Source: a virus (lineage: Duplodnaviria; Heunggongvirae; Uroviricota; Caudoviricetes). Taken from it: a DNA stretch of 7,909 nt. The stretch's first letter is position 1. The number at the start of each line of letters is the position of its first letter. Position numbers and translations under genes: made by a program. Below, in pieces: positions 2,405 to 7,909 of this stretch. The stretch lies in IMG/VR virus record IMGVR_UViG_2778261498_000001, positions 1-7,909 of that record; one strand, written 5' to 3'. Under the pieces are notes generated by a model, which was not told the origin of the DNA, made no database searches, and was given only the letters and a program-made list of their open reading frames with translations.

Positions 2405-3004
2405 ATGCGTAAATTATGTGCTGTTATTCTGTCCGCAGTAGTCTGGCTGGTTGCCGCTGGTACGCCAGCGAGCGCAGCAGAGCATCAGTCCACACTAAGC
2501 GCCGGGTATCTTCAGGCCCATACTGATATGCCAGGCAGTGATGACCTGAAGGGCATTAACGTGAAATACCGTTATGAATTTACGGACACGCTGGGGCTGG
2601 TGACGTCATTCAGTTATGCCAATGCCAAAGATGAGCAAAAAACGCATTACAGCGATACCCGCTGGCATGAAGATTCAGTGCGTAACCGCTGGTTCAGCAT
2701 GATGGCGGGGCCATCTGTACGCGTGAATGAATGGTTCAGTGCTTATGCGATGGCAGGTGTGGCTTACAGCCGTGTTTCGACGTTCTCCGGGGATTATCTC
2801 CGCGTAACTGACAACAAGGGGAAAACGCACGATGTGCTGACCGGAAGTGATGACGATCGCCACAGCAACACGTCTCTGGCGTGGGGAGCTGGCGTGCAGT
2901 TTAACCCGACCGAATCCGTGGCCATTGATATTGCTTATGAAGGCTCCGGCAGTGGCGACTGGCGCACTGACGGTTTCATCGTGGGTGTCGGTTATAAGTT
3001 CTGA
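2405..3004 (+). CDS. lom: Ail/Lom/PagC-family outer membrane beta-barrel protein (lambda Lom homologue)
   Basis: 199-aa ORF with an N-terminal signal peptide (MRKLCAVILSAVVWLVAAGTPASA/AE). Alternating hydrophobic beta-strand pattern and a C-terminal …GSGSGDWRTDGFIVGVGYKF ending in aromatic-X-Phe, as in lambda Lom. GAGAGG Shine-Dalgarno about 7 nt upstream of the ATG. Position between J and stf matches lambda. Confidence 0.9.
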   Translation: MRKLCAVILSAVVWLVAAGTPASAAEHQSTLSAGYLQAHTDMPGSDDLKGINVKYRYEFTDTLGLVTSFSYANAKDEQKTHYSDTRWHEDSVRNRWFSMMAGPSVRVNEWFSAYAMAGVAYSRVSTFSGDYLRVTDNKGKTHDVLTGSDDDRHSNTSLAWGAGVQFNPTESVAIDIAYEGSGSGDWRTDGFIVGVGYKF

Positions 3005-3060: not shown

Positions 3061-3068
3061 GAGTGGAT

Positions 3069-5426
3069 ATGGCAGCAGTAAAAATCTCAGGTGTGCTGAA
3101 AGATGGTGCGGGAAAACCAATACAGAACTGCACTATTCAACTGAAGGCAAAGCGTAACAGCACCACGGTACTGGTGAACACGGTGGCCTCTGAAAATCCT
3201 GATGAAGCCGGGCGTTACAGTATGGACGTTGAGTATGGCCAGTACAGCGTCATCCTGCTGGTTGAAGGTTTTCCGCCTTCACATGCCGGGACCATTACCG
3301 TCTATGAAGGTTCCAGTCCGGGGACGCTGAATGATTTTCTCGGTGCCATGACGGAAGATGATGTCATGCCGGAGGCATTGCGTCGTTTTGAGGAAATGGT
3401 GGAAGAAGCGGCACGCAACGCCGAAGCCGCCTCTCAGAGCGCAGCGGCGGCAAAGAAATCCGAAACTGCAGCGGCATCATCGAAGAACGCGGCGAAAACC
3501 TCAGAAACGAATGCAGCTAACAGCGCACAGGCGGCAGCGACCTCACAGACTGCATCGGCAAACTCCGCGACAGCAGCCAAAAAATCAGAAACCAACGCGA
3601 AAAACAGCGAGACAGCCGCAAAGACGAGCGAAACCAACGCAAAGTCCAGCCAGACGGCAGCGAAGACCAGCGAAACGAATGCCAAAGCCAGTGAAACTGC
3701 GGCAAAAAACAGCCAGGTTGCAGCAGCCGAAAGCGAGAGCGCGGCAGCCGGTTCTGCGACTTCAGCAGCTGGATCAGCAACTGCTGCGGCTAACAGCCAG
3801 AAAGCTGCGAAGACGAGTGAAACTAACGCAAAGTCCAGCCAGACGGCAGCGAAGACCAGCGAAACGAATGCCAAAGCCAGCGAAACTGCGGCAAAAAACA
3901 GTCAGGATGCAGCGGCCCAAAGCGAGAGTGCCGCAGCTGGTTCTGCAAGTGCGGCAGCTAATAGCCAAAAAGCTGCAAAAACCAGTGAAACTAACGCAAA
4001 GACGAGTGAAACAAAAGCAGCAGCCAGCAAGACAGAAGCAACGTCAGCCGCAACAAGAGCAGAGAATGCAGCCCGGATTGCAGAAGATGCCGCTGATCCT
4101 GCTTCTGTCCCTCCGCTTCCTGATATCTGGCTACCCTTGAATGATTCTCTGGAAGCGATAACAGGGTATGCCCCGGGCTATAAAACAATAACCATCGGCA
4201 GTGATGAAATCACTGTACCTGTTAATGGCATATGCCAATTTAGCCGCGCTTCATCAGCAACTTATATTGATAAGTCCGGGCATATTACCGTAGCAGGTAA
4301 TAACGTTCCTCGTTTTGAAAAATATGGTTTGCTGATAGAGAATCAGCGAACAAACATGTTCGTAAATAGTTTTAATCCTGATGCGTGGAATAAAAGCGGT
4401 GGTATATCTGTAACATCATCAACAGATGAATTTGAGTTTAAATATGGACGTTTCACAGTAGGAAGTGAGATAGCAGGAACGACAACAGGGAGAAATATAT
4501 GCACAGTTGCTGGTAATAAAGGCATAGATGTGACTGGCGATGATCAATACAGTAAAGGTCCGTATGTTACCGCGTCGTTCAGGGTAAGAAGTGATCTCAA
4601 TGTTCGCGCACGTATCCGTTTTGAAGGGTATAACTCGGAAGGATACACTTTCCTTTGTGACGCCTATTTGTCATTACAGACTCATGAACTACAAATTACG
4701 GGTGGTAATGCCCAGCTATTAACAGCAAACTTTGAAATCGACCCTGGTAGTGGATGGATATATTTTCAGGCAACACTGAAATGTCTGCCAGAATGGGGAA
4801 TGGTTGGTACGCAGCTGCAAATTGCAGCCGACAGAGCAGTGGGGGCTTTTGCAACAGGTGACTGGATAGAAGTAACCACCCCGCAATTCGAGTATGGTGC
4901 CTGTGCAACTTCCTTTATCATAACGACAACAGAGCCAGCGACTCGTGCATCAGATTTATGTAAATTTCCGCTGATGAAAAATATGTATACCATGCCTTTT
5001 ACGTTCATGGTGGAAGTCCATAAAAACTGGTTTATTTCTCATAATGCTGCACCGCGAGTAATTGATACAGAAAACCATCAGTCAGGTGCTCCATTTATCA
5101 TGGGATTTGGCTCTTCTGGAACTATCAGTCAGGACGGTTATCCCTATTGTGATATAGGCGGGGCTAACCGACGTGTATATGAGTCATGCGGAGTAAGAGA
5201 TCTCGTTATGGGATTCAGGGTTAAGGCTGACGGCATGACATGCTCATTTGCAAATAAGCATATAAGCACAGAAACAAAAACAGTATGGAAATATATTCGT
5301 GAAGCTGCTGTGATTCGTATCGGGGGACAAACGACGACAGGATTACGACACCTTAATGGTCATATAAAAAACCTCCGTTTCTGGAACAGAGCATTGTCAG
5401 ATACGCAGCTTAAGGAATACGTATAA
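3069..5426 (+). CDS. stf: Mosaic side tail fibre protein: lambda Stf-like N-terminal domain, Ala/Ser/Thr-rich repeat shaft, and an unrelated lower-G+C C-terminal domain (possibly concanavalin-A/LamG-like)
   Basis: N-terminus MAAVKISGVLKDGAGKPIQNCTIQLKAKRNSTTVLVNTVASENPDEAGRYSMDVEYGQYSVILLVEGFPPSHAGTITVYEGS… matches my recollection of lambda Stf. GGAG lies 6 nt upstream of the ATG at 3069; the ORF track's GTG at 3063 is in frame but less likely. The C-terminal ~445 residues differ in composition and end in …LRHLNGHIKNLRFWNRALSDTQLKEYV, which resembles the terminal strand of LamG/ConA-like jelly-roll domains. The His-rich HxH motifs of the lambda Stf C-terminus are absent. Confidence 0.85.
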   Translation: MAAVKISGVLKDGAGKPIQNCTIQLKAKRNSTTVLVNTVASENPDEAGRYSMDVEYGQYSVILLVEGFPPSHAGTITVYEGSSPGTLNDFLGAMTEDDVMPEALRRFEEMVEEAARNAEAASQSAAAAKKSETAAASSKNAAKTSETNAANSAQAAATSQTASANSATAAKKSETNAKNSETAAKTSETNAKSSQTAAKTSETNAKASETAAKNSQVAAAESESAAAGSATSAAGSATAAANSQKAAKTSETNAKSSQTAAKTSETNAKASETAAKNSQDAAAQSESAAAGSASAAANSQKAAKTSETNAKTSETKAAASKTEATSAATRAENAARIAEDAADPASVPPLPDIWLPLNDSLEAITGYAPGYKTITIGSDEITVPVNGICQFSRASSATYIDKSGHITVAGNNVPRFEKYGLLIENQRTNMFVNSFNPDAWNKSGGISVTSSTDEFEFKYGRFTVGSEIAGTTTGRNICTVAGNKGIDVTGDDQYSKGPYVTASFRVRSDLNVRARIRFEGYNSEGYTFLCDAYLSLQTHELQITGGNAQLLTANFEIDPGSGWIYFQATLKCLPEWGMVGTQLQIAADRAVGAFATGDWIEVTTPQFEYGACATSFIITTTEPATRASDLCKFPLMKNMYTMPFTFMVEVHKNWFISHNAAPRVIDTENHQSGAPFIMGFGSSGTISQDGYPYCDIGGANRRVYESCGVRDLVMGFRVKADGMTCSFANKHISTETKTVWKYIREAAVIRIGGQTTTGLRHLNGHIKNLRFWNRALSDTQLKEYV
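3572..4010. repeat. Nested in-frame tandem repeats inside stf: 42-bp (14-aa) units inside a 189-bp (63-aa) higher-order repeat
   Basis: Peptide units AAK(T/K)SETNAK(S/A/N/T)S(Q/E)T recur many times. At DNA level, 3621-3651 (aagacgagcgaaaccaacgcaaagtccagcc) recurs at 3810-3840 (aagacgagtgaaactaacgcaaagtccagcc), an offset of exactly 189 bp, with near-identity continuing for over 120 bp. Confidence 0.8.
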
Positions 5427-5695
5427 TGCGGGATATAACATTACGATTCGATAACAGAGAACAGTTTAACGCAATTGTATATGACAGTGGCCTGTTCAGT
5501 CTTGAAGAAGAAAATGGGGTTCTTGTTGATGTTATTGGCTGCATTATTGATTACGAGGAGCCAGAAAACGAAAGATGTACAGGCATTGATCGCGGTGGTT
5601 TTTTCGTAAACATGAGGATTGTTGATGGCAGTAAAAACATATCTTCTTTAATGCCTTTCATTACGACAGATCAGCATGTAAGGACATGGGCTTAA
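5426..5695 (+). CDS. Hypothetical 89-aa acidic protein, translationally coupled to stf; function unknown (possibly fibre-associated chaperone or adaptor)
   Basis: The ATG overlaps the stf stop codon by one base (TAATG at 5424-5428). AAGGAA Shine-Dalgarno at 5412-5417, 8 nt upstream. Non-repetitive sequence with the same low G+C as its neighbours. The next gene starts 12 bp after its stop. I recognise no family. Confidence 0.55.
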   Translation: MRDITLRFDNREQFNAIVYDSGLFSLEEENGVLVDVIGCIIDYEEPENERCTGIDRGGFFVNMRIVDGSKNISSLMPFITTDQHVRTWA

Positions 5696-5707: not shown

Positions 5708-6748
5708 ATGGTTACAAAAACAGTAATTCCTGATGACATCAAAACGCTAAAATCCGATGTTAGTAAACTACAAAACGATCAAGGAAGCTACGCAACAAAA
5801 TCATATGTAGACAGCAAAGATGAAACCGTTGGTGACTGGTCTGCTTCATGGTATCAGCAGGTATTGCCAACTAGCGGAGCTATATTTGGGCGAAAACTTC
5901 GCTCAACTCACAGGACGGCAGGTGTTGAGGATGCGTATTGCGAACTATACCTTAAAAAATGGATAGACAGTCCAGGGAACGCAATGGCGCGCCTTAACCT
6001 GAACGATAACGGTGAAAATATTTGCTGGGATTTTACCAACCTTTACGGCGGAACAATGATCTTCCCTGGTACTTCAGGTTATCTGAAAATGGGGAACTGT
6101 CTCATGTCGTATGGTGTGCGGGGAAGTAACGCGCTTATTAAGTTTGATAATACAGACACATTACAAATCAAATACGCTAATCATGGGTCAACCATGACAT
6201 TAAACACGCAAGGTACGGCGTATTCTGGTGTGTCGACGTTATTATGGGGAAATTCCAGTCGTCCAGTTGTTTATGAAATTAGGGATGATGGCGGGCTTTT
6301 TTTGTTTTATGCACAAAGGAACCCAGATAAAACCTATCAGCTTGAGATAAACGGGCCATGCAAGGCAACATCATTCGACCAGGTGTCGGACAGAGATCTT
6401 AAAGAAAACATTCAGGTTATTGATAATGCCACTGAGCGCATCAGATTAATGAATGGGTATACTTACCGTCTCAAGTCTAATGGTATGCCTTATGCTGGCG
6501 TTATTGCGCAAGAGGCACTTAATGCAATCCCTGAATCAGTTGGTAGCACAATAAAGTACAAGAGCGGGGACAATGGGTCTGATGGAGAAGAGGGAGAAAG
6601 ATACTATACCGTCGATTACTCAGGCGTAACGGGTTTGCTTGTTCAGGTAGCCAGAGAGTCAGACGACAGGATAACAGCACTGGAAGAAGAAAACGCAGAA
6701 TTAAGACAAAGATTATCTGCAATTGAGGCGGCGCTTGCGTCTAAATAA
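5708..6748 (+). CDS. Tail fibre / tail spike-like protein with a C-terminal intramolecular chaperone, autoproteolytic (peptidase S74-type) domain
   Basis: GGAG at 5697-5700, 7 nt upstream of the ATG. The C-terminal ~120 aa carry what I recognise as S74 hallmarks: …QV-SDRDLKENI… (Ser codon at 6386-6388; Ser/Lys dyad at the predicted self-cleavage site), …YAGVIAQEALNAIPE…, …YTVDYSGVTGLLVQVARE…, and a terminal heptad-like helix ITALEEENAELRQRLSAIEAALA. The N-terminal ~226 aa look like a short helical stretch followed by a beta-rich globular domain. Confidence 0.8.
   Translation: MVTKTVIPDDIKTLKSDVSKLQNDQGSYATKSYVDSKDETVGDWSASWYQQVLPTSGAIFGRKLRSTHRTAGVEDAYCELYLKKWIDSPGNAMARLNLNDNGENICWDFTNLYGGTMIFPGTSGYLKMGNCLMSYGVRGSNALIKFDNTDTLQIKYANHGSTMTLNTQGTAYSGVSTLLWGNSSRPVVYEIRDDGGLFLFYAQRNPDKTYQLEINGPCKATSFDQVSDRDLKENIQVIDNATERIRLMNGYTYRLKSNGMPYAGVIAQEALNAIPESVGSTIKYKSGDNGSDGEEGERYYTVDYSGVTGLLVQVARESDDRITALEEENAELRQRLSAIEAALASK
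6386..6745 (+). other. Predicted S74-type intramolecular chaperone domain, expected to be released by self-cleavage N-terminal to the Ser encoded at 6386-6388
   Basis: Motif SDRDLKENI plus the downstream conserved blocks described for the fibre-like CDS. Domain boundary is from motif position only. Confidence 0.65.
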
Positions 6749-6754
6749 TATTAA

Positions 6755-6778
6755 GGGGCCGAGCGCCCCGTTTTATTG
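6755..6778 (+). terminator. Possible weak intrinsic terminator between the fibre-like gene and the membrane-protein gene
   Basis: GGGGC (6755-6759), loop CGAGC, GCCCC (6765-6769), then GTTTTATT. The stem is short and the T-run is interrupted. Confidence 0.4.
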
Positions 6779-6790
6779 GGTAGGATGAAA

Positions 6791-7078
6791 ATGGATATAA
6801 CACCTTTCCTTCATGCGCTTTGTGCTGTGGCTGCGCAGCTACTGATTGGTCTTTTTACCGGGAACTGGGCTTACGGAGCGATAGCCGGTTGTACGTTCTT
6901 CATTGCGCGTGAACACACCCAGGCAGAATATCGCTGGATTGAAATGTTCGGGCATGGCAAGCGGATTAACATGCCGTGGTGGGGTGGTTTTGATCCACGT
7001 GCATGGGATGTGGCAAGCCTGATGGATTTTGCTGTGCCGGTGGTGGCGTGTCTGCTGATCTGGATGTTGATCCGTTAA
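6791..7078 (+). CDS. Small integral membrane protein (~95 aa, about three predicted transmembrane helices), unknown function; candidate prophage cargo gene
   Basis: Hydrophobic segments FLHALCAVAAQLLIGLFTG, WAYGAIAGCTFFIA and VASLMDFAVPVVACLLIWMLI. AGGA at 6782-6785, 5 nt upstream of the ATG at 6791; in-frame alternatives are ATG 6785 and the ORF track's TTG 6776. No lipobox. G+C is higher than the preceding two genes. It is the last gene before the att arm. Confidence 0.6.
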   Translation: MDITPFLHALCAVAAQLLIGLFTGNWAYGAIAGCTFFIAREHTQAEYRWIEMFGHGKRINMPWWGGFDPRAWDVASLMDFAVPVVACLLIWMLIR

Positions 7079-7095
7079 ATATAAAAAGTAAAAAG

Positions 7096-7127
7096 CCGCA
7101 GTAACTTGTCATGACAGGATACTGCGG
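7096..7127. other. 32-bp near-perfect palindrome 18 bp after the membrane-protein stop; terminator hairpin or protein-binding site
   Basis: CCGCAGTAACTTGTCA | TGACAGGATACTGCGG pairs at 15 of 16 positions (one A/A mismatch, one G-T wobble). Followed by TTGGCTGGTT, so no clean U-tract. Confidence 0.4.
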
Positions 7128-7341
7128 TTGGCTGGTTAACTTTCGATAGTGCGAGTATTGAATAATTTCCAGCCGTTACCGATTTTATATAACTGCAGTG
7201 GAATTATTCAACACACAGGCAAAACGGAATAAGCTGAGAAAAAAGCGTGCTTTCCCAATCTGGGGCAAATCACGTCTGAATGACACCTGAAAACAGGTGG
7301 TGGACTCAAGAAGGCTTGGAATATTCTTCTTTAATGTTATG

Positions 7342-7354
7342 TAATTCATTGATT
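7342..7354 (-). promoter_or_regulatory. IHF-consensus match in the presumptive attR P-arm
   Basis: TAATTCATTGATT fits YAANNNNTTGATW exactly (complement of WATCAANNNNTTR). It overlaps the first copy of the direct repeat TTGATTTTTCG (7349-7359). Confidence 0.4.
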
Positions 7355-7396
7355 TTTCGTGTACGATTTTAAGACATTTATTCCAAGAAAAATTTT

Positions 7397-7409
7397 TAAC
7401 TCTTTGATT
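7397..7409 (-). promoter_or_regulatory. Second IHF-consensus match in the presumptive attR P-arm
   Basis: TAACTCTTTGATT fits YAANNNNTTGATW exactly. It overlaps the second copy of TTGATTTTTCG (7404-7414), 55 bp from the first and about 20 bp from the tRNA-derived core. Confidence 0.4.
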
Positions 7410-7426
7410 TTTCGACTCTGTATCAT

Positions 7427-7488
7427 CGGTCTCGAAAACCGGAGTAGGGGCAACTCTACCGGGGGTTCAAATCCCCCTCTCTCCGCCA
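7427..7488 (+). tRNA. Partial tRNA-Ser(CGA) gene, 3' portion only (anticodon arm through CCA); presumptive att core / prophage-host junction
   Basis: CGGT-CTCGAAA-ACCGG (anticodon loop with CGA), long variable arm AGTAGGGGCAACTCTACC (class II tRNA), T-arm GGGGG-TTCAAAT-CCCCC, then acceptor 3' strand TCTCTCC-G-CCA. No complementary 5' acceptor strand (GGAGAGA) or D-arm exists upstream, so it is a fragment. It matches my recollection of the E. coli serU 3' half. Confidence 0.75.
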
Positions 7489-7770
7489 CTTTATCAATGA
7501 CTTATCTCCCGACTTCCCGCCTTGCTTTTCCTAAACAGAACAATCGTAGAATATTCTTGAAGGGTTAGATCGTCACTGTTTTCTGTTCGATACTGTGACA
7601 TTCAGCACTTGATTCGCTATGGATCTGACAGGAAGGTTTCGAGCGAAAATCTGCAATTATTCAGTCGTTTTCTTATCGGTCACCATTATTCTTTTAGACA
7701 TTGATCCTACAAAGCTGCCGCAAAGTTGGTGGTGGGAACTGAAGTTGCGTAGAGAAGGGGTCAATAATTG

Positions 7771-7809
7771 AGCAAAAAAAGGAACGCGGCCGTCAGATTA
7801 AAGCCGCGG
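7771..7809 (-). terminator. Possible intrinsic terminator on the minus strand in the flank
   Basis: On the minus strand: CGCGGC, a 12-nt loop, GCCGCG, then TTCCTTTTTTTGCTC. The stem is GC-rich with a strong T-run; the loop is long. Confidence 0.4.
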
Positions 7810-7909
7810 GACAAAGTCCATAATTTCCAAGAGTTGTTGAATTTCCCAGCTTTTTTGAAAGCCTTTGTATCATACTAACAAGTAAAAAAGGTTTAAATAC
7901 CAAAATTAA

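Follow-up and report, generated by a model that had tools for sequence, protein, structure and literature searches.

A tail-fibre-adjacent accessory membrane protein of the phrog_1443 family at the right end of a lambdoid Escherichia coli prophage

Several small inner-membrane proteins are encoded by phages, among them Imm of T4, SieA of P22 and gp15 of HK97, the last being the product of a moron within the tail gene region, and all three are produced either from the prophage or early in infection. Cor (of phi80, HK022, N15 and T1) and Llp (of T5) are FhuA-specific outer-membrane lipoproteins, and their genes close the structural cluster, beside or after the gene for the receptor-binding protein. 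A moron is an autonomous unit with its own promoter and terminator, and lom and bor of lambda are accessory genes of deviant composition among the late genes; in lambdoid phages the tail-fibre/att end holds both cor, an exclusion gene, and the moron lom. The stand-alone phage accessory proteins Gnarl1-3 alter the O-antigen, and they were proposed to exclude superinfection or to prevent re-adsorption to debris (PMC12373910).

We analysed a small gene in a 7,909-nt stretch of phage DNA, hereafter the window, which is the right end of a lambdoid E. coli prophage and is 100% identical to ST131 strain 2822. All listed genes of the window, from the J part through the small-membrane-protein ORF, are on the + strand, and its features are as follows:

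58-2337, + strand: J, C-terminal part
2405-3004, + strand: lom, 3.8 kb upstream of the small membrane gene
3063-5426, + strand: side tail fibre, 787 aa
5426-5695, + strand: 89-aa protein, phrog_1361 (unknown function)
5708-6748, + strand: short tail fibre, 346 aa, with a C-terminal Peptidase_S74 intramolecular-chaperone domain (PF13884, phrog_4563)
6755-6776, + strand: terminator-like hairpin GGGGC-CGAGC-GCCCC followed by GTTTTATT (terminator scan and fold)
6791..7078, + strand: coding sequence (stop codon included) of the 95-aa membrane protein, with an ATG start
7096-7127 (element 7083..7127), - strand: inverted repeat with 16-nt arms (fold)
7427-7488, + strand: att arm, a 62-nt repeat of the 3' part of the serU tRNA-Ser (alignment with the intact tRNA)

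The short tail fibre matches Pfam PF13884 (E 2.4e-12) and phrog_4563 'tail fiber' (E 4e-208). About 40 kb to the left lies the left end of the prophage, with an intact tRNA-Ser gene (serU) and a frameshifted integrase gene, and the interior holds a Q antiterminator, a class II holin-lysozyme-Rz cassette, HK97-type head genes and lambda-type tail genes. The prophage is integrated at serU, ARAGORN found no complete tRNA within the window, and host DNA continues to the right of the att repeat toward zinT. The small membrane gene is the final + strand gene of the prophage; a preliminary description, made from the letters of the window, had called it the last gene before the att arm, and indeed only an unannotated 54-aa minus-strand ORF lies between the gene and the serU repeat.

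Comparison with the described proteins gave likenesses and differences in each case. The window protein is, like Imm, SieA and gp15, a small phage-encoded and predicted inner-membrane protein, but no sequence or profile similarity to these three was detected, its gene has no detected promoter, and its family, phrog_1443, differs from them in that a polar motif is strongly conserved and some members are chromosomal rather than phage-borne. The position of the gene is that of cor and llp, whereas the protein has neither lipobox nor signal peptide and is predicted to reside in the inner membrane; moreover, the sequence of the family is conserved regardless of the preceding tail fibre, unlike that of Cor and Llp. 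Composition unlike the flanks and presence or absence between related phages are moron traits that the gene shows, and it resembles lom and bor in being an accessory gene of deviant composition among late genes. In contrast with the definition of a moron, no promoter was detected for it, and the hairpin downstream is predicted to terminate transcription of the opposite strand. The likeness to Gnarl1-3 is one of concept and an analogy only, namely small single-gene effectors that act on conserved envelope biogenesis, and the conserved peptide motifs of phrog_1443 are absent from the supplementary files of that study (PMC12373910). For now the product of the small gene is a hypothetical protein, well delimited but short of a discovery, and we class it as a tail-fibre-adjacent phage accessory membrane protein.

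The gene, its family and a conserved polar segment

The small membrane gene at 6791-7078 is genuine and under constraint. The longest ORF extends over 6776-7078 from a TTG at 6776 and would give 100 aa, but the ATG at 6791 is the most likely start, because PGAP uses it in the 100%-identical ST131 record, because homologues begin with M-D-[IL]-[ST]-P, and because a ribosome-binding site, AGGA at 6782-6785, lies 5 nt upstream of it. The phrog_1443 profile is matched with an E of 6.8e-58, residues 1-95 falling on profile positions 1-95 of 97, and comparison with four E. coli or Escherichia copies gives a dN/dS of 0.12-0.24, indicating purifying selection. The G+C content of the gene is 52.1%, compared with 38.9% and 43.2% for the two preceding genes, and the difference in composition described earlier is thus borne out.

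By this full-length profile match the protein is assigned to phrog_1443, an uncharacterised Proteobacteria-wide family that is known solely as an unnamed PHROG of hypothetical proteins; all of 68 diverse relatives matched the same profile. A single-sequence query returned 569 homologous clusters at 90% identity and a profile returned 2275, and an HMM search of 1.84 billion representatives gave 422 clusters at 50% identity; the 150 of these 422 that were listed are all stand-alone proteins of 58-142 aa, with no added domain or informative fusion. Relatives occur in Alpha-, Beta-, Gamma- and Deltaproteobacteria and in their phages, copies from E. coli, Aeromonas and Comamonas share 56-66% identity, and the gene is present in 1900 of 5426 complete E. 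coli genomes (35%), with a median of 2 copies and a maximum of 7.

The query had no match in Pfam, NCBIfam or PADLOC, a Pfam scan of the 68 diverse relatives gave scattered chance matches only, and profile searches of PDB sequences with two family alignments found nothing. Neither a GtrA nor an acyltransferase Pfam match, nor a conserved partner gene, of the kind expected for seroconversion membrane proteins, was found. Holin profiles of Pfam and PHROGs were matched neither by the query nor by the 68 relatives, and BLASTP against the class II holin of the same prophage gave no alignment. A literature search found no paper on the phrog_1443 family.

An AlphaFold2 model (21 homologues, mean pLDDT 91.6) has helices at aa 4-23, 26-53 and 74-94, in agreement with the hydropathy maxima, so that the earlier description of a protein of about 95 aa with about three transmembrane helices stands; the second span is short, with 14 hydrophobic residues by hydropathy. 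The parts of the protein are:

6800..6907, + strand: TM1 (aa 4-23), turn G24-N25 and TM2 (aa 26-39), a helical hairpin carrying H8 (AlphaFold2, hydropathy, conservation)
6908..7009, + strand: conserved polar segment, aa 40-73 (invariant or nearly invariant columns, K+R counts)
7010..7072, + strand: TM3, aa 74-94, with conserved D79 and invariant P83 (AlphaFold2, hydropathy, conservation)

The polar segment begins with R40-E41-x-x-Q44-A45-E46-Y47-R48-W49-I50 (aa 40-50), which is a helical extension of TM2, and continues as a loop, G-x-R-x-x-M-P-W-W-G-G-F-D-P-R-x-W72. A broad alignment of 68 sequences with 29-56% identity to the query shows no variation at E41, W72 and P83 and at least 90% conservation of H8, R40, Q44, A45 and E46, and a closer set of homologues also conserves Q16, C34, T43, Y47, R48, W49, M-P-W-W-G-G-F-D, D79 and C87. 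The family consensus can be written H...(TM1)...G-R-E-x-A-Q-A-E-Y-R-W-I...G-x-R-x-x-M-P-W-x-x-G-F-x-P-R-x-W...S-x-L-D...P. The conserved residues are charged or polar and lie at helix ends, outside the lipid-facing core. Two distant members, P0147 and P0198, carry a soluble insertion of ~45 aa (KPFxxxAxYAEWHY...) between R-W-I-E-x-F-G and M-P-W; the loop of aa 40-73 tolerates a 45-aa insertion in these natural variants, which are not tandem fusions.

Lysine and arginine are concentrated in the same segment (mean K+R of 5.3 in aa 40-73, and at most 0.7 in each other segment), which by the positive-inside rule places aa 40-73 in the cytoplasm and suggests an inner-membrane topology with the N-terminus in and the C-terminus out. 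The TMHMM call that the depositors of phage 21 gave for its homologue differs, with two TMDs and both termini in the cytoplasm. The secondary structure of the model implies an antiparallel TM1/TM2 hairpin with its turn at 24/25, in which H8 would face E41, and we infer that the polar residues H8, R40, E41, Q44 and E46 cluster at the cytoplasmic membrane interface. Such polar conservation at the interface points to a binding or catalytic site and is unlike a holin or a simple hydrophobic plug, so that a specific binding or catalytic site is predicted to be more likely than pore formation. The C-terminal tail has 1 residue (family mean, 3-4 residues with 0.4-0.7 K+R), and a charged C-terminal tail, which is a holin trait, is absent. 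A reading as a lipoprotein or a protein with a signal peptide was tried and rejected, since the protein lacks a basic n-region and a lipobox, and C11 shows no conservation.

Gene neighbourhoods and transcription signals

In E. coli lambdoid prophages, as in other phages and prophages, the gene shares its strand with tail-fibre, tailspike or J genes and begins 0-42 nt past the preceding late gene, with an overlap in phiHAP-1. The contexts are:

Phage 21: side tail fibre, 92-aa ORF, then the small gene; gap of 12 nt
phiHAP-1: tail-fibre assembly gene, small gene, sheath gene; 4-nt overlap with the preceding gene
Leclercia P2-like prophage: a 939-aa fibre with Peptidase_S74 precedes; gap of 0 nt
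Comamonas lambda-like prophage: J, 72-aa ORF, then the small gene; gap of 16 nt
Other beta- and gammaproteobacterial prophages: tail, fibre or tailspike proteins precede

The phage 21 protein, CPT_21_24 ('putative membrane protein'), is 90.5% identical to the window protein and also follows side-tail-fibre genes, and in the Comamonas prophage three more small + strand genes come after the small gene. No lysis gene adjoins the copies of phage 21, phiHAP-1 and Leclercia, and in the examined loci the gene is never beside an endolysin or holin gene. Three unrelated sequences precede the gene in a set of 86 close copies of the E. coli type, joined to it at the RBS and start codon, and the sequences behind it sort into 12 clusters. 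That the gene so consistently follows receptor-binding genes suggests a part in the interplay between phage and envelope.

The commonest downstream context begins with a remnant of the 3' end of tfa, ...EAWKKYRxLLNRVDTSTAPDIEW (L002 5295-5400; L005 and L006 6295-6400), and hence the greater part of tfa seems to have been replaced by the small gene, joined in phage 21 and L006 by the 92-aa ORF. Beyond its small gene, phage 21 carries sitABCD, a complete operon for an iron/manganese transporter, on the opposite strand (L002 5386-8835), and this confirms the region as a hot spot for cargo. The virulent T1-like Escherichia phage HC6 has an unannotated, decayed fragment of the family (L156 2965-3120), ending in ...RRRANIPWWGGFDWRAWDLPSLLD and a stop codon; it closes the structural cluster, directly behind an 859-aa S74-type tail-fibre gene and ahead of ssb and recombinase genes of convergent orientation, and the 3' end of the fibre gene and the small gene may have moved there as one recombination module. 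In the virulent Aeromonas jumbo phage AVP1 a full-length 87-aa copy follows a terminase gene, and the left genome end of Aeromonas phage 62AhydR11PP has a copy amid a group of small hypothetical genes. Copies in virulent phages indicate that the benefit of the gene is not restricted to lysogeny.

Copies are also present in chromosomes, outside prophages. In Aeromonas species a non-prophage copy is flanked by pirin and RIO1, with polB and two genes for lipid A acyltransferases in the vicinity, and the order pirin-gene-RIO1 is common to several species of the genus; these copies are 56-58% identical to the window protein, and alignment of the DNA upstream of them gave no recognisable regulator box. 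Their positions are:

L158, 6001-6309: Aeromonas chromosomal copy
L010, L011, L013 and L017, 6001-6285: Aeromonas chromosomal copies

In Sphingomonas arvum the gene lies between ligA and prmA (L068 6004-6282). Other sphingomonad or alphaproteobacterial copies stand among housekeeping genes with phage genes absent nearby (L055, L057 and L045, ~5900-6300), where the neighbours are a methyltransferase gene and an OMP gene, or an S1/P1 nuclease gene and a peptidase M15 gene, or a gene for an FAD-binding flavoprotein of the succinate dehydrogenase/fumarate reductase type; the sphingomonad contexts lack overall synteny. The location of chromosomal copies between housekeeping genes suggests a general cellular role, not necessarily phage exclusion. 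These copies were not part of the preliminary description, and the same is true of the conserved polar motif and of the opposite-strand terminator described below.

The possible terminator that had been noted upstream of the gene was found by the terminator scan at 6755-6776, between the stop codon of the tail fibre gene and the small gene. This hairpin has 5 G:C pairs and a 5-nt loop, ends ~20 nt from the start codon, and is present in 33 of the 86 close copies, those with the upstream context of the window. Ordinary upstream transcription would end at this hairpin, whereas Q-modified late transcription, by the established biology of lambda, would pass it. A consensus scan found no sigma-70-like + strand promoter upstream of the gene in the window, in L008 or in phage 21; such a scan misses weak or non-sigma-70 promoters, and weak lysogenic expression of the small gene is possible. 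The lack of a detected promoter in three contexts, together with the close spacing to late genes, argues for a terminal late-operon gene and not for an autonomous, lysogen-expressed moron. On these sequence grounds the small gene reads as the putative terminal cistron of a Q-antiterminated late operon.

The large palindrome that had been seen after the gene is confirmed at 7096-7127, with 16-nt arms, 88% complementarity and a z of -3.7; an Rfam scan of 6500-7909 gave tRNA-fragment noise only. On the + strand the palindrome is preceded by an A-run and followed by TTGGCTGG, and on the minus strand it is followed by CTTTTTACTTTTT, which suggests that it is an intrinsic terminator for leftward transcription. 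It is kept with the small gene across several downstream contexts and shows a compensatory stem change, GTCATGAC to GCCATGGC. L076 and phage PhiR47_1 have an integrase gene on the minus strand ~430 nt beyond the small gene, with its 3' end toward the latter, and in PhiR47_1 a dinI-like gene lies between the two. The junctions are:

L076, 5290-5716: small gene to integrase gene
L162, 3289-3716: small gene to integrase gene

Because the integrase genes are convergent with the small gene in these phages, the hairpin is best read as a leftward terminator of the int region at the junction with the late operon, and integration of the serU prophage of the window is best read as having parted int from the palindrome. 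This arrangement would resemble that of tI/sib in lambda. The T-run of the hairpin is confined to the minus strand, but the hairpin may also impede transcription of the + strand.

Possible functions of the protein

The explanation that we put first, while holding it to be somewhat short of probable, is that of a late-expressed inner-membrane protein whose cytoplasm-facing conserved site acts on a membrane component and whose probable benefit concerns the envelope state of the infected cell. The small gene would be the last cistron of a rightward operon that runs through Q, lysis, head, tail, J, lom and side tail fibres, and its protein would be placed in the inner membrane with the N-terminus in and the C-terminus out. 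Synthesis would take place mainly in lytic growth, when Q-antiterminated transcripts could pass the small upstream terminator, and would not arise from a promoter of its own in the lysogen. The conserved site would bind or chemically alter a conserved inner-membrane component, either a protein complex or a lipid-linked intermediate, and no pore would be formed. The likeliest pay-off would be that the envelope of the infected or lysing cell is shielded from entry of more phage DNA or from unproductive re-adsorption, and leaky expression in the lysogen would also exclude other phages. Points against this explanation are the discrepant TMHMM call, the chromosomal copies, the genomes with several copies, the decayed fragment of HC6, and the lack of a biochemical relative.

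The main rivals are exclusion in the lysogen and a captured host-type function. The first holds that the protein is expressed in the lysogen and, like T4 Imm, P22 SieA and HK97 gp15, blocks DNA injection from the inner membrane. A small inner-membrane protein at the tail-fibre/att end would fit it, as would the deviant composition, the mosaic junctions at gene borders and the phiHAP-1 copy between tail-fibre-assembly and sheath genes. The same composition, junctions and phiHAP-1 position bear out the part of the preliminary description that regarded the gene as cargo, here accessory and horizontally exchanged; its other part, expression in the lysogen, finds no support, with no promoter detected and with the coupling to late genes. 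Exclusion from the lysogen is further opposed by the terminator-like hairpin 20 nt ahead of the start codon, by three upstream contexts that are all devoid of a detected promoter, by tight coupling to late genes in other phages, by the lack of a match in PADLOC and Pfam, and by copies in virulent phages and in non-prophage chromosomes. Moreover, E. coli genomes hold up to 7 copies, which indicates that carriers are not excluded by one another, at least not from the prophage state. We consider this explanation rather unlikely.

The second rival, which seems to us equally doubtful, is that phages captured a host-type gene with a general membrane function, for example that of a small enzyme or of a metal- or lipid-binding protein, and that its benefit is physiological rather than one of exclusion. 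It draws on the pirin/RIO1 synteny in several Aeromonas species, on the order ligA-gene-prmA in S. arvum and on the other sphingomonad copies by housekeeping genes, and also on the predicted facing of H8 and E41 with D79 nearby, which would resemble a metal or catalytic site. On the other side, no homologue among known enzymes or transporters was found, the sphingomonad contexts are not syntenic overall, and the recurrent adjacency to receptor-binding genes in unrelated phage types speaks for a phage-specific use.

An accessory role in lysis or virion release, in which a protein co-expressed with the tail fibres would modulate holin timing or membrane integrity, is improbable: although a membrane protein is encoded by the final gene of the late operon, and the Comamonas copy precedes three small + strand genes, the examined loci have no endolysin or holin neighbour, the prophage has its complete holin-lysozyme-Rz cassette elsewhere, ~20 kb upstream of the small membrane gene, and chromosomal copies exist without any phage. 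The holin-like abortive-infection effector of the preliminary description, or a membrane toxin that kills the cell upon infection, would suit a small protein with hydrophobic and partly glycine-rich helices, but we find it very improbable and do not retain it, given that no holin family of Pfam or PHROGs is matched by 68 diverse members, that the protein is unlike the prophage's own holin, that its C-terminal tail is uncharged, that conservation centres on polar interfacial residues, that no sensor or antitoxin partner is conserved alongside, that the gene is stable as a lone chromosomal gene, and that the lysis cassette is ~20 kb away.

The conserved site may be taken one step further, and speculatively so: phrog_1443 might be an unrecognised class of miniature membrane enzymes or ligand binders, with three helices, probably oligomeric, bearing a His-Glu-Arg-Gln site at the cytoplasmic face, chromosomal in Aeromonas and some sphingomonads, and repeatedly captured by unrelated phage types beside their receptor-binding genes. 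If that were true, a new target-specific mechanism, for envelope alteration or a block to genome entry, would be present in one of every three E. coli strains. The small gene is among the commonest unannotated genes of E. coli prophages and its conserved polar site offers a precise handle for mutagenesis; with its function assigned, thousands of genomes would gain an annotation, and a new mechanism of exclusion or envelope modification might come to light.

Minor features of the prophage end

The att repeat differs from the intact tRNA-Ser (L155 15814-15903) by two mismatches, GTGGGG...CTCCAC against GTAGGG...CTCTAC, and the two positions are mutual partners in the stem of the variable arm of the tRNA. 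The integrase gene beside the intact serU (L155 15931-16981) is annotated as frameshifted, and thus the prophage is perhaps unable to excise. The spacer between the downstream hairpin and the att repeat has a G+C content of 36.4% and holds no ORF but the 54-aa one on the minus strand (7185-7349), which has a promoter-like site at 7211-7182 and is left unannotated by PGAP; this ORF is probably due to chance within the attP arm.

The side-tail-fibre gene at 3063-5426 is a single intact ORF with an AT skew of up to 0.73 and with tandem repeats rich in Ala, Ser, Thr and Lys, which have periods of 189 nt and 42 nt at 3588-4019. PGAP divides the identical sequence into an 'incomplete' N-terminal pseudogene and a separate CDS, and this split looks like an annotation artefact. 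The phrog_1361 protein of 89-92 aa (window 5426-5695; L002 4710-4988) overlaps the stop codon of the side-fibre gene wherever that fibre type occurs, and is a candidate fibre chaperone in place of Tfa.
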